From an uncultured bacterium (GTDB taxonomy: Bacteria; Omnitrophota; Omnitrophia; Omnitrophales; Aquincolibacteriaceae), in assembly GCA_964562525.1 (NCBI GenBank), contig CAZLTL010000003.1, forward strand, positions 4,115 to 68,114: a stretch of DNA of 64,000 nucleotides, read 5' to 3'. The notes beneath the pieces are model-generated. The model saw only the letters and a program-made list of their open reading frames with translations, was not told the DNA's origin and searched no databases. Shown piece after piece: positions 9,101 through 57,200 of the stretch. The position numbers were made by a program, and so were the translations under genes. How positions within the stretch are numbered: the first letter of the stretch is position 1; each line of letters opens with the position of its first letter.

Positions 9101-12100
9101 CCGCACTGCGGCATAATTTTGATAATGATCGGACGCTACATAGACAAGCCCATCATCTTTCACAAGCTGTGCAGCCATCTCCGTAAAAACAGCCATATTC
9201 CCCGCTCTGGGGGTCGGCGAATTTACAGATACAAAATCCATCGAGCCCTTTCCGTGCTCCTTTAGAAATTCTTCATTGGTTGAATGGGCATCGTAATTTT
9301 CAGTTCCAAACATCTGAATTTGTAAGCCGGCTTTTGCAAAATAGGTTTGTGCTTGCGGTAAAAACCAACCCTCCCCCATCCCTAAATCAACGCCCTTTAA
9401 CTTTGGCCGCCCGTCAAATTGAGCCTTAATCAACCGCACAAAATCGGGAATAGGATTATTAATATCCGCCGACAATTCTCCTTCGGGCCACAGCATATCC
9501 ACACCCTCTTTAACTGTCGAAACAACGGTCGCAAAAGCATCCGTTGCTTTGGTTTCCTTCTCACCTCTTGCTTCAGAACGGTTCGCGGTCGTTCGCTGCT
9601 TCAGATCTTGAACGGGTAGAATCCAGTGCTGGGCCTTTGTTTTTTTAAGGAAAGCGTCAACGCGCTTATGGGTCACATCTTTGTGAGCGTGAATATCAAG
9701 AAAAAGCCGATCGGCTTCTTCTTTGTTGTCAGGTGGGTAATAACCGCGTGAAAGATTAAAAAGTACCCGTAAATAAAGATCCCCCAGACGAGATTTCGTG
9801 ATTTGGCTTTCCGCATCCACACGAATATGAATAGGGTTACGGCTGACCAGTCCCGCTAGCCAAGCGTTATACAAATCGTGCGTCTTAAATGCATATTTAC
9901 TGGTACTGTGGTCACGGTAAGCTTTAAAGACATTGAACGCAGCATTAATCGAGTGTGTTTTGATCCCATCTTTGTCCTTAAAAATTTGATAGATTGCATA
10001 AGCCACGGGCGTTCCGCGATCACTCGCATCTTTAAGATCAATCATATTGAAAAAAGTGACGCCGTAAACATTGCCCGGCAAAACAGGAACACTGACCATT
10101 TCCAACATTAACTTGCCGGGCTTAAGTGAATACAGGGTATGTCTTGCGTCTTTGGCGTTATCACGCATTGCGGTAAAATAGCTATGGTCAAAATAGTTTT
10201 CCATTTCAGGTGCCCCGCGCACCGCTTGCGCGAAACGCGTGACCTCCTGATGCGCTAATTCCTCGGCCAATGCATCGGACCGCACATTGGGCAAACTGCG
10301 AATTATTTTCAATCTCAGCGCGTCGGCCTGCTCTGATATTGTCATTTTGGATTTGGCAGCGCGAGCCTCAGAACGGCGGACAGGAATTCGAACTTTGACT
10401 TCGTTTACTAAGTTCTCAGGCAAGGGCTGAAAACCGCCCATTCGCATGAGATAGTTTCGACCGCTTAATCCTTCGATAAAAACCCGCTCGCCGTAGCGCT
10501 TTTGCTGATTGCGGTGAAATGCTTGCGCTTCTTCGGAAGGATCAACTTCAATCCATACCTCCGAGATACCTCTTTCCTTCATGTCAGAGAAAAAACGGTC
10601 GCGTAAACGGGTCGCTAACTTTAGGCCCTGCCGCCGCCACTTTTTAGCTACAAATAATCCGGTTGTGCGGACGCGCCCTGATGTTCCGCTCAAAAGACTA
10701 TCGTAAGCCTGCACCGCGGCCAATTCAGGCTTGCCATACTTGCCGGTTATTTTCCATTTAGAACTTACGTAAGCAATCCAGGCATAAGGCGGAATGCGCA
10801 CAGCCCATTCCTGCGAAAATTCAACGGCCTTTTGTTTTTCTTTCAAACTGAGGTCGGAATACTTTGCAAATGTAATTTTGTATTCATGATCCGCATTTTT
10901 CAAATCTGAATATGCCTGAAGTAATTTAAAAATCAACGCGCCCGCGGTAAAAACAACCGCAGCCGCGACAAAAGCAACCCCAAAGATAACGCCCCAAAAA
11001 GCGAATCCAAAAAAAGTTTTAAAAGCAAACCTGGCATCCTCCGTTTTATCGAGCCATTCGGGCTTATTTTTTTGTTGGATTAACTGCGGCCTGCTTTCAC
11101 CCTCACGCGCCTCCGAGCGCTGATAAATGCTGCGCGTCAATCCGGCAAGTTCCGAGACATTCACCTTAATTCCATCTCCCCAGCGAAAAGGCTTGATCGC
11201 GATATAGTTCGCTTTATGATTAGGAAAAGATTTCAATTCAACCAACGTTTCATCTCCGTTGGCTCTCTCAAATCCAATCTCATTCGGACCGTACCCGCGA
11301 AGATAAACAGCTTCCTCCTTTTGCCCATTCAAAAAAGCCTCCGGCTCAGAGCCATTGGTCGCCAAAGTAAACCACCCGCCCGTATAGGAAACACGCACAG
11401 ACTCAAAATGCTCTCGCATGACTCCGTCCGCATCCGCTTCGACCACAGCAAAACGAAACTCGCGCCCATCTCCCGTCCCTTGAAAAAAACGATCCGGAAG
11501 CATAAGCTCGAAATCACGCGGAATCAAAACTGCATCTTGATTTTTAGCTCCAAATTCCGAAAGAGTTTCAGCAAGGGAAACCGCATCGAACTTACTCGGG
11601 CGAACGGAAAGCTGTAAATCTTCAAAACGCCAAAGACGCGATTCCGAACGCCGCAAGGCGGGGCTGCGGATCTCTTCCCATGTAAGATTGCTTCGATTAA
11701 GAAAATCTTGAATTTCTTGAACAGCTTGATCGAGCCCCTGATTCATGGCTGCAGTTAATTCGGGTCGAACCCGTTCGCGAACTTGACGGCGATGATCTCC
11801 GTCGCGTGCTGCAACCAACGCGTTGAGTGCGTACTCCAGACGAAGCCATTTTTGGGCGGGCACGGTTCGCATTCGAGCAAAATACTTTTCGACGCTTAAA
11901 TGCTTTTCATCCGCATAAATATCTTTGAGATGAATGGTTGAAATCAAACTGTCCACCGCTTCTACATTTTCGTGAAAATCATCGACCAGTAGCGCATGGT
12001 CTTTGGCGATACCTGCAGATTCAAGATGCTTTTGAATAGCTTTCAGCTTTTCTATGCCCGCCCCATCCGTAAAAAGCCAATCCGTAATAGCACCTTCCCC

Positions 12101-15100
12101 GAAAATAGCCGTGGTCGTAGCAATAGTTTCCGGGCGAATTTTTTGGGGCCGCGCAGTCACAGCAACGATACGAACACCCTTTTTCCGCAGCTCTTGGTAA
12201 AAACCAATATCTAAATCAGATGCAGGTTCAAAATAACCGTTCTTTTTCATCCAAGCATGCATCTTATCCACAAACGGAAAGACAAGCCGGGCCGCCATGC
12301 TTCGCGCATTTTTTTCACCACTAAACTTTTCGGTAAGCTTTTGAATTAAAGACTGAATTTGCCCTTCGGAGCCATGCCATCCCCTTGTGCTAAAAGTCGT
12401 ATTGTCCAAATCAACATAAAGCACATCCAGCTGCTTGGCATTTGCTGCGCGCAAAAGCATGGCCTCAATCTCCTGCCATGACCGCGCTTCAAAGTGACGC
12501 CCGGCAAAAGGGCCTTTCCAACCGACCTTTAACTTCTCCCGCGCTTCGGAACGTTTATCCGTTGATTCCGGCTTTCGGATAATAAAAAAATCAAATAAAT
12601 CCGGGCTCAAAAATAAAGGTTCATCCCTCATCGCCTGCGGACGTTCTTTTCCATTAAGCGCAAAAACAGAGGGCTCCGCCTGAAGAGACTGTCTCAGATT
12701 TGAAAAATCGGTTACATTCGCCTTCCGCAGCTGATCAGGCGTCCACCATCCGCTGCTTTCAAGCGGTTGCCGGCTCCGCGTTTTAAAGCTTCCGTCACGG
12801 ATCGAAGCGAAGTACTTAAAAGAATCATCCCGAACGGGCAGCAAATAATGCCCGCGTGGCTGCCACCCCCGCGCCTTTTTGAATTCACTCGCAGCCCCGG
12901 GCTTAGGACGAAAAACAACTAAATCGCCCGCACGAATTTCATGCAAGTCTTGATTCAAACGGTATCGGAGCCCATTCACATTTTCAAAAATCTTAGCCAC
13001 AGCGTAATCAGCCAGTTTTTCCCCGCCTAAATACTGATTTAAAAACTCTAGCTGCTTGCGATTCAAGTTAATCTTAACTTGCGGCTCACGCCCCGGTTCC
13101 GGTCCGTCCAAAACAAACCGAGACTCGGAGCGGCGGATCGGATAACCGGAAACAATATGAAAATTAAGATCGGAAATCTTCGCCGGATCAACTTGTCCGC
13201 GGACAAAAACATACCGATCCATATGCCGTATTTTTCCGATATTGTTTTCTACCCCGCGATCCGTAATCACCATGACATTATTTGTCAGCGGATCGAAACG
13301 CACTCTCCTCCCAATTAATTCGGATTTGTCATAATCTAAATCTTGATCATCGACATCCGCGAGGATCCATCGATCGCCGTCTTTTTCATGTTTAAACTTA
13401 ACCTTTCGTATTCCTTCAAACGGCATGAAAAAAGCATCTTGAGCTGACGCGAAAACAAGACCGGGAGAGTGAAACTTATCAACAACATCCTCCCAGCTCC
13501 GGCCTCTGAAATCATTCAAATTAAAACCCTGCTTTTGGTCATACTCCAATTCCAAAGAAAATGCATCCCGGCCGATCCAAAAATCCCTGACATTTTTCCA
13601 ATGAAGAGGAATCAGCCTCTTGACCGGAAGACTTATAATTTCCGAAAAATTTAACCCGCGTGAATATTTTTCAAAAATTAAAAGCAACGGATAAACTCTT
13701 GTAATATCAATTTCAAAATGGCCCTGCTGATCGAAACCAACCGCTCCTATTAAAAATCGCAAAACAGCCCCGCCCACACCTCGTTTTCGATTGAGTTCAT
13801 AAACGGGGTCGGCCCATGTACCGGAGGGATAAACATCATGAAACTCATATACTTTTTTATCCCCCTCATCGCGTACATTGATGCTGACGGCACCGCCAAA
13901 TTCTTCCCATTGCTGGAAAATTCCTTGAAAATAAGGGTAAGTGATTTTTGCTCGAAATGACTGCCCGGTTATAGCATCCATGCGTCCAGGCACAATCGTC
14001 ACAATGACCGATGCTTGCGTGCGAGGAATTTTTACTTCGGCAACCAGCGGCGCATCTCCCTCGCGGGCTTGGTTGAGATACTCATTAACTTCACGTAATT
14101 CCGAACGCCTTACCTCCCGAATATGCCCAGCATGAATATTGGCGACAGTTTTGAGCGCTTCAAAACCTCGGTTAACGGACTGCGCGGCAAAGGTGGAGGC
14201 GGCAACCGAATCGAACCAAGCAATCGGAACTTGTGCAATTTGTTTTTTATTGAGAGCCGCAAGTAAAAGTAATTCGGAGTCAAAGGAAAAACTAAAATCA
14301 CGCGCCACAGGCAAAATCGCACGCAAGGTTTCAGGAGAAAATATTTTGAAACCAGCTTGGGTATCGCGAATATTTGAAATCGGCGAAAGCAGTAAGCGAA
14401 TAGCCCAGTTGTACATCAAGCTTGAAATGAGAGCCTGCCAATTGCGTCCTTCCGTGTACGATCCTTTTCCGCGGCGAACGCCAATCGCGGCTCCGTTCAA
14501 AACTGTTTCAGCCATCGGTTTAATTAAAAGCCCGGTTAAAAGCAAGTTGGCCGAAATATCCATGTCGGTATAACCAATGTAATGTTTTCCGCGCGGTCGG
14601 ATGCTATTGAGAGCTGCGTTTAAGCCTAAATGCACAGCCCCGCCCTTCGGCCCCCTTTTCACACTGGGTGCTAATCTTAAAATTTGAACTTGCTGCGGAT
14701 CCAGTTTTGATGACCGGCGCAAACGTTTTAACAAACTGACCGTTTCCAAATCAGGAGAACCATCATCCACAAAAACCATCCGCCAATGAAACTGCGGATT
14801 GATTTCACGCAACATTTGGAGCTGTTCAAACTTCACTCGAAAGGCATCTTCTCCGGCAGGATAACGCGCTGATGGCCGGTGCAAACGCTCAATTTCATTG
14901 TAAGCGGGAATTCCCCAGGTAACCGTAACATCCTGTGTAAGCCCGCGAATCACATCCATCGACTCATCGATTTTCTTTTGCTCAATGCCCTTCGCATCGC
15001 GGCCGCGCAAAGTAAAATCATCGCTTCGCGTTTCAGACCGCATAACGTTTCGCCCAGACTTCAATTCTGCCGATTGATGAGAGGGCTCTTGATCGCGGAG

Positions 15101-38734: not shown

Positions 38735-39274
38735 ATGACTCAAAAACGCGCAGCCACAATAAGTCTCCTGAGCCTGTTTTCTTACCTGCTTGTGGCTTGC
38801 GCCTCAAAACAACCGCTGCCGCCATCGGGTGACGCACCTTACTTTAATTGGATTCAGCCATCTACCCCCGAATCCTCTTTGACGGGAAAAGCGTATTTCT
38901 GGCCTGCTCCAAGCGGCGAGAGTGTCCGAATAAAAATCATGCTGACGGGCGCGGTTCCGGAAAAAGAGTATTTTGCCCATATTCATGAAAAAGGCGGTTG
39001 CGCGGATGAAGCCCAGGCCGCGGGAAAAATTTACAGGCCGACGGGTTCTTTTCTGGGGTTTGAGACAAAACAGTCCGGGCTATTGGCTAAAATCGAATCC
39101 AACGCTGATGGTACGGCAGAATTTGAGGGAGAATTCAAAAGGTTTTCGCTTGCGAACGGCAAAAATAATATCGCCGGAAAATCGATTGTCATCAGCGGCG
39201 ACGAAACCACATTGACCCGCGCCGGGTGTACCGTCATTCCCGTTCCAAAGCGCGAGGGCAAATCCGCGGATTAA
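38735..39274 (+). CDS. Lipoprotein with Cu,Zn-superoxide-dismutase-like fold but incomplete metal ligands
   Basis: Lipobox LLVAC. AHIHEKGGCADEAQAAGKIYRPTGS and NADGTAEFEG...IAGKSIVISGDETT parallel SodC blocks (FHVHE.G.C..AG.HFNP ; ADG.A ; GRSLVIHAGGDD), but the His63/71/80/120 equivalents are absent. Stop overlaps the stop of giant gene 2 by 4 nt (convergent). Confidence 0.5.
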   Translation: MTQKRAATISLLSLFSYLLVACASKQPLPPSGDAPYFNWIQPSTPESSLTGKAYFWPAPSGESVRIKIMLTGAVPEKEYFAHIHEKGGCADEAQAAGKIYRPTGSFLGFETKQSGLLAKIESNADGTAEFEGEFKRFSLANGKNNIAGKSIVISGDETTLTRAGCTVIPVPKREGKSAD

Positions 39275-42200
39275 GCCGCCGCCTGAATCTGCTTCGTCGC
39301 GGCATATTCTTGAGCCAGACGCATCAAGACATTCATCGAAACCGCAAGCCTTCCATCCTTAAAAGTCAAAGCCTGCACGATGTTCTGAAAATACCCGGCG
39401 TCCGCAAGCAGCATGGGAATATTATTCATCTGATCACGGCTTTTTACTTTACCTGACAGCAAAATCGCCACAAGCATCCGCATCAACACATCCGCTTTTT
39501 GGCGCTGAACATCGTTAAAATCAGCAAAGCCGTCTTCATCAGAAATCAAATCGACGATACTTTCGCTTTTTTGCGACGCGCCTTCTCCGCCAGCGCTAAA
39601 AATCGACAATAAAACGGGAGCTCCCTTTTTAACTGCGCTCACCAAAGAATTCACGCGCCTTACCATCGTTGCGGGAACTTTTAAATTCGCCATTGTTTTA
39701 GGCAGCACAAACCGCACTCCATCTCCAAACGCAAACTCTTGAATGGCTTGCTGCAAAGCAATCTCAAGCTCCGGAGCATCCAAAGCAATTTCCACTTCTG
39801 ACTTTGAATTCTGTAAAAGGACATCCGCAAAAAACAACTCCAGGTTTTGAATTTGTTTGGTCTGATTACCCTCCCAACTCGCCACCATTTCATCGCGCAG
39901 CTTTTGAACCGCCGCCAAATACTCATCAAATCCAACCCTTTCAGCATCGCTCACAACTTGCCGTGCTTGCGAATCAGCTTGCTGTGGACTTAAAGCCAAA
40001 ACTTCAGCCTGAAAGACACCTAATAACCTAGGTGCCGATTCAACTTCTTCAACAACTTTACGACTTTCCGATCGGCTTACGATCGCCCTCTCTGCAGAAA
40101 CTTCCCGCGATTCAGAACGAGCAAGTTCAAAGCCGGTATTCAAACGAGAGAAACTTGTAAATGAATTCGGTAAATCACCCTCAAAATGAACTCTCTCCTG
40201 CTCTTCATCAACTCGATCAATAACATAAGTTTTGCCATTCATGATATTTTTTACGCTATCGCCAACTCTCCATTTTGGCAGCTTGCCTTTAACAGCAACG
40301 TCGGGCTCTTTAACATAAATCCAACCCTCTCTAAAATCAGCGTAATTAGGTTGATTTTTACTCACGAGAGCCTCATTAAAATTAAATCCTTGCATATCAC
40401 GGAAAGCAACTCTTTTATATCCAGGAATATTGCCCTCATCTTTTAAGGTCACGATAACGTTCGACTTGAAAGGGATGGCTTGAATAGGAACATTCGTCCT
40501 GAGTGCCGCTTTTCTCAAGTACGCGCTAAATCCTTCATAAACATTCCGGCTATTGGCAACTGAATCAGAATCAATTTTTGTCTGCTCATAAATGATTGTT
40601 CTTTTCTTTGAATTGCCCGCAGAACCATCTGATGACCAAACAAAATCAATATAATCAAAATCACTATTTTCACCTCTTGCCGGATCCCCTTTTCGAGGAG
40701 CTTGAATTTGCTCGGCACCAAGCGCCTCGAGCTGCCAGGTGATTGCCGCCAAATTGCTTCCGACGGCTGCAAGAAGCTCGGTATTGATGTATCCATTTGT
40801 TGCCAAGGATGCCATGAATATCTCTTTTAAAGAATCCGGCGGATTGTCACGATCCGGTTGTTTCGGAGTAAGAGGAAGAATATCCCGAATATGAACCACT
40901 TCAGCATCGAATAAAATCAGCGGAGTAATGGCATCGGCGCCGCCGTAATCATACCCGACCCGACTCGTATCGAACCCATTTTCTCGAATCCATTTTTGAA
41001 CAATCAAAGAGGCATCAACCAATTTTCGGGTCATGGTCCGATTTTTGACTAAGTTTCTATAATTTGACAACCCTTCAACTTTAAAATCACCCTTTGCGGC
41101 GGAATCGATTAAAGGCCATAAATGCTCTTGAACGCCCTCGGGTAGCAGCAGATAACGACGCTCCGTAAAATAATGCACTCGAAGCATCTCTTCGAGCAAA
41201 AGTTCCCTGTCTGCAGCATTTAAAGGGCTGAGGCTGATAAAGTTTTCATACAGCTGATGCATGCTCGTGAGTCTCAGTTTCTGGCCGCGCTGAGCAATTA
41301 AACTTTGTAAACCAAAAATAACACTAAAATCTTGTTCACTAAGAACCCCCTCTAAAGCGCTAATTAAAAGCGGCCAACTTTTTTCGAAGTTAAATTTTCC
41401 GTCATGAACACTTTGACCCGAAACTTGCCCAAAAACATACATAGCACGCATAAAGTTTTTGAGAGATTCATCTATTTTCATACGATTAATTTCCTCAACA
41501 GCAATTTTTATTTTAACAACCGCTGAGCTAACAACATACTGAGGGGCTTGTTTTTCAATTTGCTTCTCAAAAAAATCAACGCCATGCATCACATTAACCA
41601 TGCGCGCAACCTGAATAGCTGCCCGGTCAAAATCCAAAGTAATCACAAAAGAATCATCGCTCAATGATCGCGCCATCGCTTTCCAATTTTCAAAAATTTC
41701 TCGCTTACCAAAACGATTCAGCATCGACTCAAAAAAATCTTGTTTTTTAAGAATCTCCTCAAACAGCTTTTTGTAAAGAGCTCTCTGTTCACTTACGTCT
41801 TTAAACTTTTCTTGCAAATCAGCATGCTGAATAATTTTATCCGCGACCAAAACAACTTCTTCAAACACCTCCGCCATTCGCATTTCACTTCTATCAGAAG
41901 CAGACTCACTAGCCTTGCCTTGCATGTTTAATTCAACTTTTTTTGAATCTTTATTACTGCGCGGAATCCAAATACCATAGCGCAAGGGCCGCCCTTTTCT
42001 CTCTTCTACTTCAAAGTACACCGCGTCATGATTTGTTAATTTTCCCTTCGTTGCTTTTTCTCGCAAAGCGTCCCTAACCTGAGTTGCTTTTTTGACACCA
42101 TCAAAGTCAAGCAGCACACCCTCCTTAGTCGAACCGGCCGGAATATCATCCGTGAAAGCAAACAAAGCTTGGGGCCAATTAACATCAATGGCATCCATCA

Positions 42201-45200
42201 TTTTTTGATAAGCGTTGCGATCTAGATGGTAAAGAGACGCGTTTGCCAAAACCAAATGAGGAATACCAGCTTCACCGCCTGGGAATGCTGTCATATCTCC
42301 GGCAACAAAATGAGTATTCGCGCGAAAATCATCCGCTTGCTCACGAAGGGTGCTCATCATGTCATCCAGATAAGCCCGTTGTTCCGGTTCAAGCGTGGCC
42401 TCTGAGGCAACCCAAGACTCCAACCCGGCAAGACGGCGTTTTGCGCTTTCAACCAAAGCTTGGCTCTTTTCCATAGCCGTGATTTTAATTTTCCAGTCGC
42501 CTTTCATATTTTTTCCGTCGCGCTTCAAGAAGCGGTTTATTTCATGATAAACACGCGCGGCTTCCTCGCCCGTGCTGGCTCCCAAAATCTGAACACGAAT
42601 TTCAGGCTGCCCTTTACTTTGCAACGCTTCCTCTTCAGCATTTCGTACGATCTGTCCCAAATAAGTATCGGCCCGGTTTTGAACCAATTTGTAATCTCCG
42701 CGCAGCCGATCCCATTGCGCCAAATGTCTCACAAGCAATGAAAGTTGCCTCGTTGTCCCCACGGTTGAAGGCTCAATCACAGGATCAGGAAACCGCACTT
42801 CGGAGCGTAACACCGCAACTTGCTTTGAAATCTCTTGGGTCACGCTTGAAAAATCATCAACGGTTATTCCGGATGAAAGCCCACTCTGCATCAATGCAAT
42901 CAGGCTGCCAATCTGTACGCCGGATAAAGGAACAGGAAAAGAAACAACGATCCGATTATCAATTTCGCCGCGGTCACGGGTTAAAATTTGGGCATTTGAC
43001 ATTATATTGCCGCGCATGGCTGCGATCATGCGCGTAAGACGGTGCAAAAACCAAGGCTGGTCGCGGTCACTTTGAACCTTCATTTCATAAGTCAAACCAT
43101 CTTGGCCGTCCAAATTTTTAAATTCCACTTCAATCCGAGGCTGATCCCCTTCTTGTGCTTGGCGGCCGAAGGATTGAATCCCTTGGTCATCGTAATATCG
43201 ATTCAGTCTCTCCTGAAAAAGAGCCGGATCTCCCCGCATCAGGGTTTGAATATCTTCCCGTAAAAATGATTTTACTTGATCTTGCAGGTCTCCCGATCGA
43301 ATCAGCTCACCCTCAAAGTTTTCGCTCTTATAGCTGACAAGAAAATGGTTGAAAACTTTTCCGTTAATCGTTTTGACAAAAACCTGCTGCACATTCAACC
43401 TTCGCGCAGCCAACGCCGCCGTCATCGCGGCCAAAAGACCGGGCCGGTCTTCCGGCAATCCGACCCAAACATTCATATAACGATTATCGTGAATTGAATA
43501 AAGGTCTGTATCCAAATGCATAGGCATAATCGAATTCCAATGAATATCCTCTAGCCATTCCATTTGTGAAAGAAATAATGATCGAATCTTGCTTAAAATT
43601 TGATTCATAACACGCTGAAAAGCCGCCATCGCTTTAACAACTAAGTGATTTTTTATTGTAAAAATGCCAATTTGAATCTCGGGATGAATCAGCTTGCGGT
43701 AAAAACGATCCAGCTTTACCACATTTGAAACATCTCGTTTTTGCGAGTCAAAATGCAGCCGCATCAAATACCACGCTGGAAACTCGGACAAAACATCGGG
43801 GTGAATTCCTTGCTGGGCCAAGTCGTCTCTAAATTTTTGCTGATCGACTTGAATCTGAGCTTCCCATTTTTGACGGATTTTCGCTTGTGCTTCTGCTGGT
43901 GAACTTAAATAAGATTCCATTTCACGCCGGATTTGAACAAGTTTCATGACAGCATGATTTTGCTCCAAAAATCCCGCACCTTGATTGCTACTGTAAATAC
44001 TTTGCAGTGATTTGCCGTATAGCCCCATCTCGCTCAGCAATCCACGGACATCTCCCGGCGGCCCAGGAATTCGGAACACCCCAAGATAATCCGCCATTGA
44101 AACCATAAAAAGCATATTTAAATAATCCAAATCCATTTGGGGTAAATCCGCAAGCTCAAGCAGCATCTGTTCGAAAGTCTTTCGACCGGCTAAGACATCC
44201 GCAAGAACAGAGTTTAAATATTGATGATACATAGCAATCCATGAAGGAATTTCAGCTGTGTCCAGCTGCAGCTCTTTAAACAAAGGCGGCAGCATCTGTG
44301 CGCCCAAAACCATATGCGACGGCGCATAAGCTGTCGGCACCTCCTTGGCTTTTCCGATATCATGGAAAAGCTCTCCCAACCTAAAGGAAGCAAGCTGAGA
44401 CGCTCCCTTTCCGGCAACCGAACGATAGGCTTTTTGGTATTCAAGTAAAAACTCTCTCTCATATTGCCCCACATTTTCAGGAGCATAAATCTCCTCTTCT
44501 GCATCGGCGAACGCAAACCGCTCTGAGTTCATTAAAACCTGTACTAAATGCCGGGCGGTATAGTATTGATGCGGTGAAATATCTCCGTCATTCTGACGCT
44601 TCAGTATTTTCCAATCGGGAAGAAGCCAATCCCAAAACCCCGCATTAAAAAGCGCCCACACAGCATCGTCTACAGCTGCATCAATTCCAAAAGCATCAAA
44701 AATCCTTTGCGCCGAAATGCGCCGCGCTTGGTTTTCAGACACTGAATCTTCCGCTGAAGCGCTGGCAATCGCATCCCGCAAAGCCAAAGCAAAACTGTCG
44801 CCAATTTCAAATTGAACGGCGTGATTTTGATTTTTTTGCTTCTCCTGAAGATACTGTTTCAAAGCGGATATAAAATCAGTTACTTGCACTTTTTTGCCGG
44901 GCTCCTGGATAGAAACAAGGCGATTGATGGTTCGGGCTTCACCGTTGTGGCCGCGCGCAGGAATCTCCAATATTCTAAATTCAGATCGAAAAAGAGGCCT
45001 TGAAGTAAAATTTTGTCCCAAATCTTGCGCAACATGGTCCAGCATGGCGCCGATAAATTGGTTTAAATCGCGGCTAAAATCAGCCCAATAGGGCAATGAG
45101 TCTTTCCTAATCACGTCAACACCCGATTCCGTCATAATCGGGGGAAGATCTTCCAACCTCACGGCATCCTTCAAGTACGGATTGCTGCTGGCGAGCCCCA

Positions 45201-48200
45201 CTTCCAACGAGCTGACTTGACGGCGGAAATAATCATACCGATCGGCATAACCCAATTCTTCAATCCAAGGTGCGGTCACCCTATAAAATGCATCTAAATA
45301 ATTTCTCAGTGATTTATACCGCCCGTTAAAAAAACGGCGCGCAAAAGGAAAATAAAATTCCATTTCCTTCACGTTATAAACTTGATACTGCCGCTCAGAT
45401 TGCCATACGCGGAAAAGCTCATCGATTTCCGCGTAGATCTTGCTGTGTATCGCGCTGCGCCGGCTGGGTAAATTTTGAAATGCCGCGTCTCTGTCCGAAG
45501 ATGAAAAAAGAAAATTCATATCTTCGATTAAAGCCTTGATTGTTTCCTCATCCAGAGGTCCTTCGTTTTTCTGGACTTCAAAAGTATCTACCACCCTCAG
45601 ACCTTTGTAATCTTCGGCAACTCCTTCGGTATCCAGGGTTGATTTATCCATAATATTCAACCCATATCGTTCAAAAAGCCGGGCAACATCGAAAAGAATC
45701 TGCGGACCGTCTTCCATCTTAAGGTGGATGAATGTTGATTTTTTTCCGTTTTCAGCCGTCACTTCCAAAGGGATGGTTCCGCTGTTCGGTTTTGCAGGCT
45801 GATAAATTTTACTGCGATTTTTGAGATAGGCTTGATAAGACTTGCCCGCAGGGTCAACAATTAAACTCTTGATATCTTCCCTTAATACTGTCTGAAGCTT
45901 CTCCTCAACTTGCGCCATTTCTTCGCCATCAACCGGGTTGCGGAGCTTAACAATAAACCGGTCTCCGGTCGCGCCGTTCCGAACCAACCCAATCTGCATG
46001 TTCTGAACGCTCAGATTATGTTTCACAAACGCAGCCGCAATCCGCAAAAGCGTTCCGGGCCGATTCCAATAGGGGTCCAACACCACATCCACCTGTAAAA
46101 ATTGATCCGAGCCTTCTATAAACCGCAAAGCAAGATCAACGCTGGTTTTATGCTGTTTGCCGTCCGCCTCGGGCATCCCCTCCTCTGCCAATTGCTGAAT
46201 TTCATGCTGTGTTTGACTGAACCGCACTCGTAGTTCTTTGTCATTTTTAAACTGACTCTCAGTCAACCCCATCAAAGGCTGCAGCACTTCCGAAAAAATC
46301 TTTTTACGTCCTAGGTTGAAAAAATCCATCCGCGTCACAGTCAAGAGCAGTAATAAAACCCACCGCTCATAGTTTCCCTCCAGCTTTTGGTCGCGGAGTT
46401 CTTTAAACATTTGGGGATCATTCATTCCGCCCCGCCGGATGAAATTAATCAATGCATCGCGATTTTCAATCAGCCAAACTAGATTGCTTTTCTGGGATTC
46501 TTCGCCGTATCCAAGCTGCTTAATCAAAATTTGAACTTGTTCCGGCATAAAATCAGCCAAAGGCTGTACAAGAAGGGCATCACGAATCGAACGAAGCAGC
46601 TCAGGCTTATTTTTGACAAACTCCGCCTCGCTCTGAACTTTCTCCACCAAAGCATGCGGCTTATCTTCCCAAAATTTAAGCCCTAAAATCTGGTCCATAA
46701 CACCCAAGCTTTTAATCGCGTAAATATCTAAAGTTTCGCGATGCTTAATATCCAGCGTGGCTTTTGAACTGATTTCACCAAAAGCTGGGATCAAATCCTC
46801 AAGCAGCCCGAGCGCGTGCATCCGGAATATCAAATACCCCAGCGCTTGCGGCGTTTCTCTCAGTTTTAAAAATTGCGTGCGCGCAGATTCAGGATTAGCT
46901 TTGACCCATTCACTAAAATCTGGGAGGCGGCGAGTCATTTCATCTAAAAGCTCGCCGGTCATGGCCAGTTTGTGCTCTACTGCATATTGAAGCAGATTCA
47001 AAATATTCTCGGATTTAAGAACGTGATCCGGATGAATTGTTAGCGTAACTTGATCAACCACATGCTTCAGTCCCGTATCCAGAAAAACCGTTTTACCCGT
47101 CCGCTTCACGAGCTCAATTCCATCTGCTTCTAAGCCTTTAACCCATTTCGGCTTTCCGTCATCACCGAGCGGGGTATAATTCAGCGAACTCGTTTGATGC
47201 AGAGCGCGCCTGAAAATATTCGACGCAAAAAGATAGAGTGCTTGACTTGAAGACTGAAGCCTTGAAACCATTTTCTCAAGCCTCGCCTGCGGGTCCGCGA
47301 TCTCGGGATAAAGCTGACCGGCAATGGCCTGCTGAAACTCAAAGCTAAGTATATCCGCCGTTTTTTCCGTTAAAGGTTTTTTTTGCTTCACCCGTTCTTC
47401 ATGCAGCATCCAGCGCACGGTCCTTAAATAGCGGTAGGCTTCCTCCGCTTCTCGCATTTCCTCTTCAGCGATCATTTTCGGATGCAAAGCCTTTTCCTCT
47501 TCTGATCGGTGATCCATAACTTGCAAGATCCAACGGCTAAAATCCATATCTCGGAAACCGCCGGCACCCCATTTCAAATTCGGTTCACGCTCAAAAATTC
47601 CGTCATAAAAACCCCGTTTAACCCTGTTTTCCTGCCAAAATTTAATCAAATGACGAATCAAAAATTGGACGTTTGTTTTGATGTCTTCAAGCTCCGGATC
47701 TTTCGTCGGATTCTTAAAGTCGCTCTGCAAATACCTGTGATATTTCTGATTGAACTCCTTCACAACAGTTTCCGAACCGGCTACCGGCCGAGCGTCTATC
47801 ATTTCCGTCATCTCTTCCGCGGTCAGATTACGGGTTTCGATATCATCAGAAGCGATTTGCGGCCAGCCGGCTGAAAAATTGAGCCCATTCAGCATCGCAT
47901 AATAAAAGTAATCTAAAAGCGGTTTATACGATTCCTCATCCGCACCCCGCGGATAAAGCATCAATCCATCACGGTCAGACCCCCGGGCCAACTCGTTGCG
48001 CGCATAAGTTCCCGTCGCAACAAGAGCAACCGGCCAATCCGCCTCATGCCCTGCCAACCCTTCAACAAAAGTCGAGGCAAGGTCAAAAATAATCCCAATT
48101 TTTTTGTCTGAAAGAATGCTTAATTCCTTTGATTTCTGTTCCGGCGAAATCTCTAAATCGGGCTTCGCTAAAATCGCGGTTATTTCTCCTAAATACTGCT

Positions 48201-51200
48201 TTTTAAAATCCTTCGCCCAATCCATAAAATCTTGCCGCTGATGATCAAACCGCAGCTCTGAGCGGTTGACTATTTTTAAATCGCGCTCGAGCTCACGATA
48301 TAAAAGCTGAATGACAGAATCATCCAATTCAGCCAATCGTGATTCTGTGCTCAAATCTGATATTTGTTGAAGTTTCCGTGAAAGCCCTTCAAAGTCACCT
48401 TTGAGAAGATACGGCTCAAATACGGCGCGGGCATCCTGCCGAAGCTCCGGACTAAAATAACCATCGATAAAAGCTTCAAAAAATAATTTGCCATGCAGTT
48501 TCAGAATTTCAATTTCATCCTCTTCAGAAATTCCCATCTGCTGAACACGGCGCGCAGCGGACGCAAATGCGTCACGGTAGCCCAAAACCAATGTTTTGAA
48601 ATCTAAAAATGCATATGCGAAACGATCTTCAAACGTCTTGATATTTTTCCACCGCTTGAAATGCGTCAAATCGCGAATTGCAAAAATTTGATCATTCCAA
48701 ACCGCGATATTCGTCAAATTAAATGAGCCATGCTTGCCAATTTTCTGCATTTCCCGGAGCATTTCAGCCGACTTTTGAATTACTTTTCTGACTTCAGTCA
48801 CAGCGGCAGCAACGTTGCCTTGTTTTCCCGAAATTAGAAATTTTTCAAAGTCATACACCTGATCGATCAATTGCCGGTGAGCGCGAATTTCATCATGCTG
48901 TATCGCACCAAATTGATTTACAACGAGTTGTGCCTGCACCAACTGGAGCTCATAACCCAAATCAACTCTTACATTTTCCGTCTGCAAATATTTATTGGAA
49001 ATTTTCCCCTTGGCAAGAGGGTAAGCCGAAGAATAATGGAAGCCATTTGGGTCGAAATGTAAAAATTGCGCAGCAGCTGTTTCTTCATTAGCTTGGGTCC
49101 AAGGCAAACCACCCAAAGCTTGCGCCCCCTCAGGTCCATAAACAATCCGGCCATCAAGCACATCCACTTTTTCCAAAGGTTGCCCTGCCGCTTTTAAAGG
49201 AAGTTGACGTACTGACTCATCATCGTAAGAATCCAGCCGAATTCCTTTTGCAATAGCAGCGTTATACACCACTCCCTTAAAAACAACCGGCTTCGCCAAT
49301 GGAATAATGACTGAGCGGGTCATATTGGTGTTCCCCGAAGTGCCAATGGCACGAACACCTCGATCACCAAAACGCTTCATATTTTCAGCATGTTCTCCAA
49401 AAGACAAAACACCTTCGACGACTTCACGGTCTTCGGGTGAAATTAAATCGTAAACTTCTTTATCAACAAATAAGTCACTTTGAATAGGGCGGCCGGGGCG
49501 ATCCGAGAAATCGTTATTGCGCTCCAATTCACGCATCTCAGACCTTTTTTTCTGAAACACACTCACATCCAGTCCTCGTGCTTGAGCGAGCACATACTCC
49601 TGAGGGTTTGCAGTACTCCCTACATAGCCGAAGCGGCCAAGATAATGCGGAAGAAAAACAACTTCTGAATCATTTAAACCAAAAATCTTTCCCATTTTCT
49701 GAAGAGTCTGAAAATCAATATTATGCGTTGTATCCACGCCTAACTTCAGCGGGGGTTCCCCGTCACGATCGCCAAATGTCCAAACTGAATTAACTGTATC
49801 GGACTCAAATCGATGCGACGTTTTTTCAAACCCGTAATCCATCGTCAGCACAATACCTTGATTAAGAGTTCTAGATATTTCCGCCATCAACTGATTCATT
49901 GCAAGATTGACCGCAAACTCCTTCCCTTCTGGCGGCAAACCACCCACCAATTTGAAGTAGGCCTCGATCTCATCTTTTGCGGCCAGCGACAAATCACCTT
50001 CTTTTTCATAAAAACCGCTCTCGTTGTAGGCGACATAAATCTCTTTCAGCTTGCCTCCACGGACAACAACCCGGTGCACGGCAAAAGCATCGGGAAGTTC
50101 ATTTGAATAAATCACCCCATTCACGGATTTTTCTCCTAAACCGGTGTGGAGCGCGGAAGCATTTTGCCAACTTAAGCGATCACGCAGAACCCTCTTAAGA
50201 CTTGCTAGCGTTTTTTGCTGACGTTTAATCAGTACTTCATTTAGCTCGACTATTCTGTAATGCAAACTATTCCAAAATCTTTCGGGATATTTTTCTTCTG
50301 CCATCAGAATGGTTTCCAAAACGTTATGCGCCATAGAGCCATCACCGCCGCTCAGCTCAACAATATCAAAATGGTCAGGTTCCCCCATCGCTTTCCAAGT
50401 GTTCAAAAATTGATCCGCCAGAGCACGCCCAATCGCGGGTATATGCGCGTTTGTATGAAATTGAACCCCTACGTCATCCGTTCCCCCTATTTGTTCAAAC
50501 TGAACAGCCCCCGCTGAGTAATAGCCATATTTTCCGTAAAGCGCTAACTCTTGAAATTGGACGTAAGGAATCAACCCGCCCGCTTGATCAATTGCAACCT
50601 CAATCTCGGCCTGAGAATCTTCCACCAACCGCATTTCGGAGCGCCCCATTCGAAAGACATAACGGTGGGTGGGAATTTCAGATTCACTTTTTCGGTCAAC
50701 TAATCGATTGATTTCTTTCTCACCAAAAAGATCAATCCACAAACCTTGGCTCTTTTGGTTTAAAAAATATTCTTTAGTCTGCGGAAACTGTTTATGCAAG
50801 TATGCTTCCACACCTCGATTTGAAATCGTGACCTCATAAATGGTATTCAGCGGAGCATACTTATCTTCTAAAAAGTTCATATACGCTAAAGCTGTTTTTC
50901 CTGATTGATAACCCGTCGTCAAATCTGATGTCCAAGAAAGTTTAGGCTCTCTCAAAACTCTTCCACCGCGTTTTGTCCAAATATCACCCCATGAGAAGCG
51001 CGCTAAAATCGATGGATCAGAATCTGTTCGATCACCGTACAAAGACAGACTGCGAAACTCTCCGGTCTTAGCATCAACTAAGTTTTGAAGAGCGGATTTC
51101 TTTAAGACCAAAATCGTACGCTGTAATTGATGTGCGACTAAAGAGTCCTGCCCTTCACTGTAATTGGTCAAAGTCAAGTAGACGGCATCATCTTTGCCAA

Positions 51201-54200
51201 GCATCTGAATCGCAGGGTCGATTTCTATTTCTTGCAAAAATCGCTGCCCTGTTAACGGCGACTCGCTATTGCTAAAGTGTTTTACGGCCTTAATCTGATC
51301 GCGGAAATGAAGCCAAGAACCATCTTTCAAGGAACCAAGCCATTCTTGCTGCATCGATTCATAAACATCCGCTGGAATTTCTCTTGCTTCAGAGCGGCGG
51401 CGGTTCGGCTTAGATTTTCCGGGCGGCTTTAACCCAAATGCGCGCCGCGCATCCATCCCGGTCAATTGCTTTCCTAGGGCGGGTTTATTTTTAAAATTAA
51501 AATCGTCCAGAACATGCTCTTTTAAACTTTGGAAAAAGCCCTTCTCCTCAAAGAATACACTCTTAGCTATACGAAAAAATAAGTACGCGACCCAAAAAAT
51601 AAATCCGCCACCCACAATCGAGGCAAGAGTGACTAAAAGATAAAAAAGACTTCGATCGCGGGGTTTCACCTCAAGAAACTTCCCATCAGACTGAATCTCA
51701 GCAGCCAATAATTTGGGTCCGGGCAATATTCCATCCCCTTCCTCAACATCGAAGTAAATCTTCCCGTCTGATTCAAACCGAGCGTTGATGGTCAAACCTG
51801 AAAACTCACTACCGGAAAAAACCTTGAGTTGATTCCGCTTAAACCCACGCTGAGTAAGCAAATCAGAAAAAACCTCGGGCAAGCTAATCGGAGATATCCC
51901 ATTCGCATAAATATAAAAAACTCCGTTGCCAGGAGTAATTCCATTTTCTTTAAGAATCCTCGCAAGATTGTCCGCATAAGTTTCCATTTCAGAATCCGAC
52001 AAAAGCTCGTCTGTTTCCATATTGCTCGGATAAACATGCGCTAAAACAGCTGGCATACTTTTCTGATCGGAGTGCGCCATCACAACGCAACATTGGTTAC
52101 CTTGAATAACATTAGTAAAAAACGAGCCGTCCTTAACAATAGTCACTTCATTCTCCGTGACCATTCGCGGGCTAGGATCGTCATTGCGCAGCTCGCCGGT
52201 TGAAAGCCGATATGTTTGGACGCCCGATTCAGCGCGCAACTCAGAAATGCTAACCATTCCCCAAACCGAGGCAATCGCTAAAGATTTGACGACCTTGGGT
52301 AGGATTTGAGCAAAAGCAAATCGAGCCATATCTCTCACTTCTGAACGGCTCTTCGAATCTGCTCTAGCTTTACCTTTAGGTTTCGAGACTGTCCTTCGAG
52401 CTTCTTTCTTTAAATCCTTTTCCGTCTGCTGAGTCAATAAACCAAAATGATAATTCTGACTACCTATGTTCTTCAGCACCCAATCACGAGCAGACCTATA
52501 AAAAGCAGTCCACAACGACTTATAAAAATCATGCCGCTGTTCTTTTGATACTTTTTCCGCGGCATTTTCTGCCTCTTCATTTATTTTCCACAAAAAACTC
52601 CGGGCCAAGCGATAACCTGCTTTTACAGGGTCTCTTATCGCTTGAATTGCCGAAGGACTCATTTCAAAGTAAAGTTTTGCCTTCAGCGGCTCAAAACGGA
52701 TATATGCCCAATAAGGTAAGCCACTCAATAATGCATAGAGCACTGCTAGTACATCAGCAAACCATTCGTGCGCAGCCTTACGTTCAACTGTTCCCGAGTC
52801 AAAACCCCATTGATCTAGCATTTGGTGCCCGAGCTCGTGAACAGCACTCATAATTGCCTGGGATGGCGAGACGGAACGTAAAAATCGACTGCCAAACTCA
52901 TTATGTGAATTGGCATTGTCCCAACCCCATCGAAGGCTTCCACGCATAATTCCGCTGACAACTTGTCGTTGTAAATCTGAGTGAGGCAACCAAAGCAATC
53001 CCTTGCTGCGTAGATCTAAATAAACCGCTGTAATAAAAACTTTCAACTCCTCATCACCCAATGGACTCCGCAAAATACGGCGCACCTCGGGTGCGGAAAC
53101 ACCATCTTCGGGATACTCATCCTTCACAAATTCCTTTAAAAATTCCGCAGAAGGTTTCTCTAATAGAGTTGACGTCTTCACATATCCGCCGTGCTTTTGC
53201 AACAAGCCAAAAGCATAAAGTCTTAAATGAGTGATTACCGAGGAGTCTTCTGCTATTTTTTTTAAGAAGGTAATTTCGTTTTTAAAATGCCGCAAAAGCA
53301 CATATCCCGCAGCATGTTCATAACCATGCAAACTTTTTAAATACGCTTGAGCGGATTCATTGGGCAACCGGCTCTCAATTAACTGGGCTAACTTTGTGAC
53401 TTTTTCAGATGGAACAAAGTCCCTTAAGAGATGCCCAAGTATCAAACGCAACCGACGATGCGCGTTGATCTGAACTTCACTTTTCCTCTGCTGAAATAAA
53501 CGGATTTCATGTTCAATTAGGCTGGAAAGAAATGAACGCGAAAGCCCTTGAACTTCGTCTCCCACACTTCCATCTTGAGCTAGGCCCGCAATCACGGAAA
53601 CAGCATTTCGATAAGGCAACTGTATCATTATTTCTTTCATCAACTTTGCGACAAAGTCATGATCAAAGCTCTTATCTTCAGACTGACGAATGCTATCCAA
53701 ATAACCCTGAGCTTTTGGTAGTTTAAAAAACTTATCATTGGCAAGCCCTTGCAAATTCGGCCACTCATCAGAATTAACCCTTACTGCTTCGTTCAGAAGC
53801 TCAAATGCGGCACTCCGCTCAGCAATGTCATACGTTTTACCGTATCGCAATGCATTAACAGCTTTTTTGATCGAATCAGCCGCATAATCCTGAAATTCTC
53901 TAACGTTGCTTTCTCCGTTTTGATTCAGAATTTCAAACACACCAGGGCTTTGAATCATCCACCGCACCATGTGAAAACGCAGGTTAGCGTTCAATAATCT
54001 TTCGGCGAATACTGAAGCGGTTGTTGTATCGCCAAGAAGAATCAATCGGGCATACTTGGTAAAATCATCCGGCTCTACTTTCTCCATAAGAAGAAGCAAA
54101 TCAACAACAGCGCGAATATCCTCATCATTAGCATTTCCGAAACTTTTGCCTGTTTCAATAAATTGAATGAGTCCACGCAACATCTCGCGTCTTACCGATC

Positions 54201-57200
54201 CCGCATAATTCTCTGGGTCCTTCAAAATCATCCTTACAACACCAGAGAAGTCTCCATACGCAGTAAACAGCATCGAATCCCCACGCCCCGCCTGTCTAGC
54301 TTCCGAACGGCCTAATCGCGAATTATCAAAAACAAAGTCATAATTTATATCCGGCCCATAAAACAAATACTCATTTGCATATTCAGCCCACTCACGGATT
54401 TGTTTCTGAATCACATCCGGGCGCATTCTTGCCAACTCGGAGTTAGGATTTGATTCAATTCGTTGACGAACCCGTTTCTCTAAACCGGACTGAACAGTCG
54501 ATTGGTCTGTGGCCACATGAACTTTAATGTCAAACCAATCATCACGACGATCCAATCCATTATTTCGTGACCCAAAAAGATAATATCCCTCCACAATAAC
54601 AGCCTGAGCGTTCGGATGAGATCTCAAAGCTTCATCAATAGCAACCCTAAGCATTTGCGGATTGGCGCCTTTCTTTGACGGCAGCAGATAATCATCCATA
54701 TGAATCACAACATATTCATTATTCCCCTCGAACTGTTTTGAAAATGTTGTTTTTCCCGAACCTTTGGTTCCGTCAATGCCAACCAATATCGGAGTTTCAT
54801 TTTCCAAACGCCTTTCACGAACAGCCGCTTCCAAAAGTTTACGAGCCTCCCGCATTGAATGAATCTGAATATCCTCACCTAAGTAGTCTTGAACAATCTG
54901 CTTTGCAGTACGAGTCTCAGAACGCTGAAATAAGGTATGCGACCGTGGTCGATCGGCGCTTCCCCAACGATAAAGAATTTCCCGCAAAATAAGCCGATTA
55001 CGGTCTTGGCGCAAAACTTGAAAGTGATGGTTTAATCTCAAAATACGGTGATCAGATACTCTGCGTGAAGGTGTAATAAATTTCTCTAGCGCAGCCTCGG
55101 CTGTGTCGAACTCGAAAACGTGATGATCCCGCGCTGTAGCGAAAAGCTCCCAAAGACTCATTCTGGAAAGCTCTTCTGACAAACTCCGCTTTTGATCCGC
55201 AGAAAGGCTATTTGGAACAGGGCGGCCTCTCTCATCAATATCATCGGAAAAAATCCACATCTGCGGTGAGCCAAATGTTGCAAGCTCCGCCAAAACTTCA
55301 TCGCGCATATTCGCACCTTGATTCTTATTTAATTCATCAAGACGAAAATCATCAAACGTCGCATAGCCCAGTTGCTGATAGACATCCGCCCTGGTGAGAT
55401 TTTCACCAGGCTCTGCCTGCGCATCTAATCCGCGCAACCAATCTCCGTGGTTCGCCTTAATCTTTTCTGCTTCTTTTTCATTGACCACTTCGATCACGCT
55501 CATCAAAGCCATTGACTGCGCCGCTTGGCGCACAACATAAGCACCCTTTTCATCGGAATAGGCTCTTGCTATTCCAGTAAAAGCCAGCCGTACAGCGTTC
55601 ATTTTCTGATTGATAATTTTGCTGAGTAACTCCGGATTCGATAGCGCGTCATCCCATTTTGTAATACCTCCATCGCGCAAAGCGCTCCAAAAGTCATACA
55701 GAGCTGAACGGTTCAAAGTCCGCGATTTATTCAATGCATCCATACGGAGCGCGAGCATTTGAAAATCAGAATTTTGGGAATCTGCTTTATGCTTTTCCAA
55801 TTCCGAAATCCATTTTGAGTAATCTTCGCGCGCTGATTCCGAAACATTTTCGACACGCGGTTGTGGCGGTAGAGTTAACGCGGCCGACATCAAAACAGAC
55901 GCCTCGGGCGCAAACGCATTTACAAGGACCGCCTCCGCAGCAGTCATGGATTTAAGCAATTGAGTGACACTAGAATGATTGAGTTTTCCGGAAGAATTAA
56001 GCGAACGCAAACCACTTACAAATTGGTCAACTCGGCGAGACAAACGTTCAGCGACTCCTTCCCGGGGACTCCGGTTTCGGCGTCCGTCACGGCTTTGAGC
56101 TTCATCAATAAACTTTGTATATTTCCAAGCGTCCTGGGCGCGTCCTTGATCCGCGAGGTCTCGAATAATTTCATCGCGCCAAACTTTTGCGGCGTCAATG
56201 TCTTGAGACAAAAGCTGGTCGCGGACTGAGCGAGCAAATGCGTCATAAGGGCGAACACGGTTGCCTTCAAATTTAAAATAGGACTTCCACGACACATCAC
56301 CTGCCATGTGCTTGCGATAAGAATTCACTTCCGGTAAACGTTCAATCTTGGGCGTTACGACGGCATACGAAAGTCCTTCTTTTTTAAAGCGTTCCGCCAT
56401 TCCCTGAGTATGAAAACCGCCGGCAACTAAAATGACCGGGCGAGTATCACTCGTGGAATTGGGCAGCATCTTGCGGATATTCCGCATAAACGCTTTTTCA
56501 CGCTCGACCGAGTTTTCATAGAAACTTAAATTGGCTTCCAATAAATTCCAATCTATCAGACGAAGCTCTCCCGCTTCCCCCTCGGAAGAACCCCGTCTGA
56601 TAGATTGAATTTGATTCCATTCGTCATGCGACAATTCCAAACGTGCAAGTTTTTCAACTAAACGGATTTTTTGGCTTTGCTTTTCTGTTACGCGAATAGC
56701 TTCTTTGCGGGGCAAATCTGTTTCACGCTCTACAAGCTCCTGCTTAATTTCGGCCGCGTAAACCTCGAACTCCTTCAAAAGCTTGGTCCCGCGCATGGAC
56801 TCTAAACGCATTTGCATTGCGGATAACTCGCGCAGCGGACGAGAAAACTGGACAGCTAATCCGAGCCCCCCCGCTAATTTTTTAATCTGAACCGCAAACT
56901 CCTGAGCATTCATTGCTCCGGTCTGGTAGGCTTGCAAGCATCGGTTCAATTCCATCAGCTCTTTTTTTCGGCCTGCCGGATTTTTATCTAACCCGGCCCG
57001 GACAACTTCAACGGCCGCCTTCAGCTCCGAATCCTGACCTTGGACATGTTCTCCTTGCTGCTCAACGCGCATGAGCAATTCAACCAAAGAACCCGCTGCC
57101 GGCTTTTTAACCGAGGCCAACACTTTGATCGTTTCGAGAATTTGCGTTTGATTCTCCTCAAAAGCTTCCCAAGCGCGATCCGCATTTAAAAGATCCGGTG

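Follow-up and report, generated by a model that had tools for sequence, protein, structure and literature searches.

GlnD is the textbook case of a single protein able both to add a regulatory nucleotidyl mark and to take it off again, and in GlnE the adding and the removing are shared out between two homologous halves. In GlnD, PII is uridylylated by the N-terminal nucleotidyltransferase (NTase) domain and the uridine monophosphate (UMP) is taken off by the HD domain next to it, both activities being controlled by glutamine (PMC4285133). No substrate of GlnD other than PII is known, the glnD gene is mainly proteobacterial and actinobacterial, and the actinobacterial GlnD adenylylates GlnK rather than uridylylating it (PMC4285133). 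The subject here is a GlnD-derived region within g2, a giant open reading frame (ORF) in a stretch of 64,000 nucleotides from an uncultured Omnitrophota bacterium (contig CAZLTL010000003.1; the whole stretch is called the window, and all nucleotide positions refer to it). The region covers window positions 42808-48249 on the minus strand, corresponding to amino acids (aa) 3187-5000 of g2, and it is formed by two consecutive GlnD-derived units, module A followed by module B, each collinear with GlnD and each with an ACT-ACT pair of its own. Judged from the residues kept and lost, these neighbouring modules almost certainly have complementary catalytic sites, the NTase being kept and the HD site lost in A, and the HD site being kept and the NTase missing in B.

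The first-pass annotation of this DNA, which was made without database searches, had placed a GlnD-like nitrogen sensor at 43400-48060 (aa 3250-4803). The region was right but the range too short, the true limits being aa 3187-5000, and the fourth ACT domain fell outside it. Both profiles and alignments support that this part of a giant modular protein is homologous to GlnD, the PII uridylyltransferase. All the features named in that annotation, an NTase, an HD domain and four ACT domains, were recovered by profile searches (TIGR01693, PF08335, PF01842 and the HD site), and when the domains were parsed with hidden Markov models the segments fell to the GlnD, ACT and HD families. The parts of the region and the junction motifs that border them are the following:

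39271..57807, minus strand: giant ORF g2, a single uninterrupted ORF with no internal stop, 6178 aa, modular, with 12 copies of the pentapeptide RSExR
48250..48264, minus strand: RSELR junction, aa 3182-3186, directly upstream of module A
44989..48249, minus strand: module A, aa 3187-4273, with NTase, GlnD helical domain, degenerate HD fold, ACT-ACT and helical tail
47962..48015, minus strand: Pol-beta-type NTase signature TGTYARNELARGSDRDGL, aa 3265-3282, with G80, S91, D92 and D94 of the module in invariant GlnD-family columns
47248..47616, minus strand: GlnD_UR_UTase helical domain (PF08335), aa 3398-3520, including EREPNLKWGAGGFRD; E 5e-15; invariant E222, P223, K226 and R233 kept
46270..46842, minus strand: degenerate HD-fold domain, aa ~3656-3846, from alignments (NF002487 alignment, 327-640)
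45859..46134, minus strand: ACT1 of module A, aa ~3892-3983, from Pfam ACT, with the order beta-alpha-beta-beta-alpha-beta in the AlphaFold2 (AF2) model
45502..45765, minus strand: ACT2 of module A, aa ~4015-4102, from Pfam ACT and the AF2 model
44989..45459, minus strand: helical tail of module A, aa 4117-4273 (module residues 931-1087), predicted local distance difference test score (pLDDT) mostly <50, no family match
44974..44988, minus strand: RSEFR junction, aa 4274-4278, between modules A and B
42808..44973, minus strand: module B, aa 4279-5000, with pre-HD helices, intact HD and ACT-ACT, and no NTase
44080..44577, minus strand: HD catalytic core of module B, aa 4411-4576, with the motifs PHQYYTARH, FHDIGK (aa 4480-4485), YHQY and MADY all kept
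43249..43485, minus strand: ACT3 of module B, aa ~4775-4853, from Pfam ACT, alignment and hhalign
42874..43101, minus strand: ACT4 of module B, aa ~4903-4978, from Pfam ACT, alignment and hhalign
42793..42807, minus strand: RSEVR junction, aa 5001-5005, closing module B

The best NCBIfam family of module A was GlnD (TIGR01693, E 6e-39), and 10 of the 11 matches at E ≤ 1 were to GlnD or GlnE models. The helical domain PF08335 scored 56 bits against a cutoff of 21. Module A has both the NTase signature expected of a GlnD, G-[GS]...S-D-x-D, and PF08335; TGTYARNELARGSDRDG is present, with the invariant columns kept. The pair of aspartates of the SDxD motif, said in the first-pass annotation to be retained as SDRDGL, was found at aa 3277-3282 within TGTYARNELARGSDRDGL. 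With a canonical GlnD of 842 aa, module A was aligned by BLASTP over 460 residues (E 2e-21). In a multiple alignment of six canonical GlnDs and 11 relatives it was collinear through the NTase, the helical domain, the HD fold and the two ACT domains, and in a 40-sequence alignment it kept every invariant column (G80, S91, D92, D94, G158, E222, P223, K226, R233, R279 and D508). Loss of a third catalytic aspartate (LWD replaced by MLN) was considered and rejected, as the column varies even in canonical GlnD, for example in P0033 (P numbers denote database proteins).

The HD site of module A shows the opposite pattern. The first histidine is kept (H503), the second has changed to tyrosine, the HD dyad reads Q-P (ALLVQPLAD), and the late aspartate has been replaced by arginine. 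On these residues the HD fold of module A is catalytically dead. The HD ligands were lost also in all of the 11 other clade members aligned, namely eight other large proteins and three shorter relatives, P0010, P0015 and P0031, of which P0010 and P0031 are stand-alone forms. With this degenerate HD fold placed after the NTase and ahead of the first two ACT domains, the first unit has the canonical GlnD order. The first-pass annotation recognised HD by its motif and, because the catalytic residues are lost, overlooked this domain.

Module A was modelled with AF2 on an alignment of relatives and GlnDs, and the model reached a mean pLDDT of 72 and a predicted template modelling score of 0.68. The NTase, the helical domain, the HD fold and two ACT domains of the beta-alpha-beta-beta-alpha-beta type were well defined, and the tail (931-1087) was of low confidence. 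When the model was compared with the PDB using Foldseek, the adenylylation domain of Escherichia coli GlnE (3k7d) came first (E 1e-6) and the Legionella AMPylase DrrA next (E 6e-5). As far as the model goes, the top two fold matches are thus both protein nucleotidyltransferases. Lower down were CCA enzymes with an HD domain, and the regulatory ACT domains of aspartate kinase and threonine deaminase. By sequence, neither module A nor module B had a significant match in the PDB.

When module B was aligned with its counterparts in two relatives and with canonical GlnDs, it ran collinear with the last ~520 residues (the C-terminal ~60%) of GlnD, covering the pre-HD helices, HD, ACT1 and ACT2. When three B modules were compared with 73 canonical GlnDs using hhalign, the probability was 99.9% (E 4e-33), module residues 45-680 corresponding to residues 333-818 of the 842 of GlnD. 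The best NCBIfam matches of module B were GlnD models (TIGR01693 with 30.1 bits) together with HDIG (TIGR00277), the latter with E 0.0017 and 18.2 bits against a cutoff of 27.6, while all the HD ligands are present. A profile search with the B modules in a collection of 5.8 billion proteins found 17 proteins, 16 of them either named [protein-PII] uridylyltransferase or carrying GlnD-type domains. For the weakest of the 17 (E 8.6e-4), the annotation is that of a cation:proton antiporter carrying an ACT domain.

In both modules Pfam ACT (PF01842) exceeded its cutoff of 27, with 33.3 bits in A and 31.6 bits in B and with two stretches in each, so that each module has, like GlnD, two C-terminal ACT domains. 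GlnD is a stand-alone protein of ~100 kDa with a competent HD domain beside the NTase within one unit, whereas the present region is embedded in an ORF of 6178 aa and its HD is intact only in module B. By these sequence comparisons the region falls outside the GlnD equivalog, as its score is far short, neither of the units is bifunctional and it does not stand alone. It is a variant on the known GlnD, a split and duplicated GlnD-like cassette that recurs in modular giant proteins of Omnitrophota. A chance match is excluded by the E-values for TIGR01693 and PF08335 and by the number of relatives found with HMMER, which searched module A against 1.84 billion representative proteins and gave 891 matches at E ≤ 1e-3 and 108 at E ≤ 1e-10.

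The relatives ranking highest in this search were not ordinary GlnDs. The top eight were large proteins of 2,021-7,818 aa (E 8e-86 to 4e-39; 26-31% identity), a ninth large protein had E 7e-17, and ordinary GlnDs of ~900 aa appeared only from E ~1e-19. In eight of the nine large relatives the match was internal; in P0006 it begins near residue 241. In P0002 and P0004 module A is followed at once by a B module, as in g2, at 24-27% identity, and the recurrence of this arrangement at such identities indicates that it is old and has been maintained. In P0005 (aa 1801-1935) and P0007 (aa 1649-1773), a calcineurin-like phosphoesterase (PF00149; E 2e-9 and 2e-13, respectively) follows directly after a module A with a dead HD, and from its position this domain is a candidate for an alternative hydrolase partner. 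The pattern among the relatives fits a transferase module that has been stripped of its built-in hydrolase and would usually be paired with a separate one. Searches of narrower scope added little: a word-index homologue search with module A gave one weak canonical GlnD and nothing else, a close-relative scan of the GTDB species representatives gave no match, and a narrow metagenome scan gave three loci, two of which were the contigs of P0003 and P0004.

From the residue pattern it is reasonably probable that module A acts as a nucleotidyl writer and module B as the matching eraser, each under the control of its own ACT pair. Module A would move a nucleotidyl group, either UMP or adenosine monophosphate (AMP), from a nucleoside triphosphate to a hydroxyl of a protein target, and module B would hydrolyse the nucleotidyl-protein linkage made by A. 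Ligands bound to the two separate ACT pairs would set the balance between writer and eraser, and by analogy with GlnD the ligand may be an amino acid such as glutamine. The opposing activities of a bifunctional GlnD would then have been divided over two duplicated units. As the nucleotide used by the actinobacterial GlnD differs from that of the E. coli paradigm, UMP cannot be assumed for module A. Nucleotidylylation of a putative target under amino-acid control, as suggested already in the first-pass annotation, remains a plausible prediction.

Several observations weigh against a working writer and eraser of this kind. Module A reached 133.9 bits with TIGR01693, and the equivalog cutoff is 519.4; its identity to canonical GlnD is only ~20-24%, and the third metal-binding carboxylate of its NTase was not confidently located. 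The Pfam HD domain in module B (aa ~4476-4530) scored 15.4 bits, which is below the cutoff of 22. Among the relatives, no hydrolase partner can be recognised for the module A of P0003, and the junction is optional in P0002, where A is followed by B with no RSExR in between; in P0004 the variant RSNMR stands in that place. Furthermore, no PII gene or other obvious target was found in the 64-kb window (tblastn, with E. coli GlnB as query), and no canonical glnD or glnB was present in it.

It is rather unlikely that the two modules are pseudoenzymes, retained as ACT-based ligand-binding or scaffolding pieces and carrying out neither transfer nor hydrolysis. The high divergence, with 20-27% identity even between copies in giant proteins, would suit such an origin, as would the dead HD of module A and the state of P0005, in which the SDxD has gone altogether and reads GKPTG. 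Nevertheless, module A of g2 keeps all the invariant residues of the NTase and the GlnD helical domain, and the HD ligands of module B are kept in three independent lineages. General decay would not be expected to leave just one site intact in each module.

Another explanation, here considered unlikely, is that the region is the plain GlnD of the organism, a bifunctional PII enzyme that was fused into the giant gene and duplicated and that still senses glutamine and acts on PII. The best family match of both modules is indeed [protein-PII] uridylyltransferase, A and B together hold every GlnD domain, and no other GlnD substrate than PII is known (PMC4285133). The score of 134 against 519 bits is, however, far under the equivalog cutoff, and as the HD of A is dead, there is no single bifunctional unit. 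The nearest relatives are modules of giant proteins and not stand-alone GlnDs, no PII gene lies within the window, and the mainly proteobacterial and actinobacterial distribution of glnD (PMC4285133) also speaks against it.

The modules could also be a small-molecule signalling pair, in which the NTase makes or caps a nucleotide or another small molecule and the HD module degrades the product. A Pol-beta NTase and an HD domain are combined in the CCA-adding enzymes, which were seen among the fold matches (3wfp and related structures, E ~2e-3), and no protein target has been identified. Still, GlnD is the specific homologue by sequence (E 6e-39), with GlnE second, and the top fold matches GlnE and DrrA modify proteins, which makes this explanation quite improbable. 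The arrangement suggested by the first-pass annotation, a single GlnD unit shuffled into the order NTase, ACT-ACT, HD, ACT-ACT, is what is seen if the intact sequence motifs alone are counted, but it can hardly be upheld when the NTase is followed, ahead of the first ACT pair, by a complete and collinear HD fold, the second half is collinear with GlnD 333-818 including the pre-HD helices, and an RSExR junction separates the halves; instead there are two collinear GlnD units with the RSEFR junction between them.

The junction motif itself was found throughout g2 and in a second giant ORF of the window, g1. The pentapeptide R-S-E-x-R occurs 26 times, with 12 copies in g2 and 14 in g1, and the number expected from composition is 0.1-0.15 per protein. 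Its rate in the two proteins is 2.38 per 1000 aa versus 0.033 in 80 unrelated bacterial loci, whose ORFs (728,000 aa) served as control, a difference of ~70 times. The relaxed pattern [RK][ST][ED]x[RK] gave precisely the same 26 sites in g1 and g2, so the four fixed residues are invariant. The flanks of the motif are not conserved, and the x is M, A, T, V, S or L in 62 of the 68 unique instances in the family. Since the synonymous codons at the motif vary, the constraint acts on the protein; a signal at the DNA level was rejected, as the choice among these codons is free and the codon at x is no start codon. A 27th in-frame match, RSESR at window ~34165, lies in a non-coding stretch beside tRNA genes and was discarded as a chance match.

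All the Pfam domains of g1 and g2 sit between two copies of RSExR, and the segments between the motifs are of the size of whole proteins. The motif in the form R[SA]ExR is present also in P0002, P0003, P0004, P0005, P0007 and P0009. On this distribution RSExR is a candidate processing or junction signal. Cleavage at the motif is putative, and no protease family was identified; modules A and B may either be released in this way or act as parts of the intact giant protein. An embedded zincin-like protease was considered on the basis of two HExxH motifs and rejected, because they come with no Pfam protease match and several of the RSExR-bearing relatives have no HExxH. The second giant ORF and the two HExxH motifs are located as follows:

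3185..17371, minus strand: giant ORF g1, 4,728 aa, with 14 copies of RSExR
52813-52839, minus strand: HExxH (AVHELGHQM), g2 aa 1657-1665, in an otherwise unannotated module
~5726-5740, minus strand: HExxH, g1 aa 3878-3882, in an otherwise unannotated module

Signal-like or transmembrane-like segments were observed right after RSExR at g2 aa ~1823-1860 (~52230-52340, minus strand) and in P0002 from aa 1886, P0003 from aa 1113 and P0153 from aa 685. These hydrophobic starts of internal modules look as if the modules once had, or acquire, free N-termini. Another side observation concerns the other end of the proteins: in 7 of the 12 family proteins examined the C-terminus is -AA or -SA (QIQAAA, SLASAA, AFAQAA, IRQSA, IGSSA and VMTSA).

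Omnitrophota are ultra-small and probably host-dependent bacteria. It is possible, although this can be put forward only tentatively, that g1 and g2 are polyproteins or beads-on-a-string proteins in which RSExR serves as a processing or docking signal, and that A and B form a PII-independent cassette that modifies sibling modules or the proteins of a prey or host according to amino-acid levels. The cleavage points of giant proteins are unknown according to a recent preprint (West-Roberts et al. 2023, 10.1101/2023.11.21.568195), and if the polyprotein interpretation were true, RSExR would supply these missing points for dissecting the giant proteins of Omnitrophota. As the motif splits the giants into protein-sized pieces, it offers a concrete and testable dissection rule, and it is a more novel lead than the GlnD split. 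A literature search for variants of RSExR found nothing relevant, and the searched texts of 10.64898/2026.06.07.730766 and 10.1101/2023.11.21.568195 make no mention of GlnD, ACT, linkers or a junction motif.

The hydrophobicity scan of g2 found three segments over the threshold, at aa 7-25, aa 2055-2073 and aa 4953-4971 (score 1.72). The first is signal-like and lies at the N-terminus, the second is an internal transmembrane-like segment, and the third is within the ACT4 fold and is not taken as membrane-spanning. The description of the GlnD domains as buried in a secreted or membrane protein, made in the first-pass annotation, is only loosely right. Both GlnD units are C-terminal to the first two segments. 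This order suggests that modules A and B would be on the cytoplasmic side, provided that the N-terminal segment of g2 is exported.

The Pfam content of g1 and g2 includes a P-loop kinase-like region, Methyltransf_28, GlnD, ACT, methyltransferases, GNAT and HAD. The neighbours of the giant ORFs are housekeeping genes, with rpsB-tsf-pyrH-frr-sua5 upstream and also leuS, uvrC, murJ, holA, surE and others. Among the GTDB species representatives, RpsB was 66% identical to its counterpart in a Candidatus Omnitrophota metagenome-assembled genome and no more than 60% identical to any other, which agrees with a very probable origin in Omnitrophota. A Cu/Zn superoxide dismutase-like ORF (38603-39274, plus strand) is convergent with g2 and overlaps its stop codon by 4 nt. 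The remaining features are the following:

~56400-57807, minus strand: conserved N-terminal domain of g2, aa 1-~470, following the signal-like segment
~15960-17371, minus strand: conserved N-terminal domain at the N-terminus of g1, the same domain as in g2
49672-50421, minus strand: Methyltransf_28 (PF02636), g2 aa 2463-2712, E 6e-38, two modules upstream of the GlnD-like unit
39274-40059, minus strand: C-terminal module of g2, aa 5917-6178, 77-85% identical to its counterparts in P0002 and P0003
34315-34401, minus strand: tRNA-Leu(CAA)
34565-34640, minus strand: tRNA-Ala(GGC)

The giant family has both an N-terminal and a C-terminal domain in common. The N-terminal one has the invariant residues H80, E108, R436 and GGFH463-466, and it is found also in stand-alone proteins of ~470-550 aa. 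Homologues of the g2 domain are annotated as hypothetical in metagenome-assembled genomes of Ca. Omnitrophica/Omnitrophota, and the domain has no Pfam match and no significant sequence match in the PDB. Its interpretation as a hydrolase of the Tiki/ChaN/erythromycin-esterase type was not adopted, as the fold matches were weak only (3b55 and 6xcs, E ~0.13); it is a lead and not a result. The module type with Methyltransf_28 occurs also in the relative P0003, where it is 67% identical. A shared module order of methyltransferase, X and A in g2 and P0003 was likewise not accepted, since the X modules have no detectable homology.

The identity between g2 and its relatives is very uneven along the protein. 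Compared with P0002, the terminal modules and one internal module (aa 2143-2388) are 80-85% identical, and aa 2394-2754 are 67% identical to P0003, whereas the GlnD modules of g2 are only ~27% identical to any relative. With terminal modules at 80-85% and GlnD modules at ~27%, the proteins are mosaics, and this pattern suggests either exchange of modules or very uneven evolutionary rates.

Of the known giant proteins, those closest to g1 and g2 are the multi-enzyme proteins of at least 10,000 aa described from Omnitrophota, which carry methyltransferase, GNAT, HAD and HD-regulator domains (Nielsen & Lui 2026 preprint, 10.64898/2026.06.07.730766). They share with g1 and g2 the phylum, the many unrelated enzyme domains and the signal or transmembrane segments, but g2 with 6,178 aa and g1 with 4,728 aa fall short of the size of those catalogued there and by West-Roberts et al. 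(2023). The polyproteins of viruses and eukaryotes resemble g1 and g2, by analogy only, in having protein-sized modules in one ORF with a short, strictly conserved peptide between them, some of the modules starting with signal-like hydrophobic segments; in g1 and g2, in contrast to these, cleavage is putative and no protease was identified.

Of the nucleotidyltransferases, GlnE (PDB 3k7d; NF010707) is the best match of module A among solved structures, with a weak match at the sequence level (E 0.0018), but unlike the A and B pair it uses two NTase domains and has neither HD nor ACT. GlnD (TIGR01693; EC 2.7.7.59) has the same order of NTase, PF08335, HD fold and ACT-ACT as module A, which has kept the residues of the NTase and of the EPxxKxGxGGLRD motif, and it shares the conserved HD motifs with module B. 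The actinobacterial GlnD stands alone in an amtB-glnK-glnD operon, and there is no such context around g2. The present region differs from GlnD also in coming from Omnitrophota and not from Proteobacteria or Actinobacteria, in having no PII gene nearby, and in being split and duplicated inside a protein of 6,178 aa, with a dead HD in A, no NTase in B and two ACT pairs. The A and B pair would be a natural system for studying the transferase and the removing activities apart. The putative separation of the GlnD activities into units with sensor domains of their own, conserved as the arrangement is in a few giant proteins, suggests that a GlnD-type switch is used outside the classical PII circuit.

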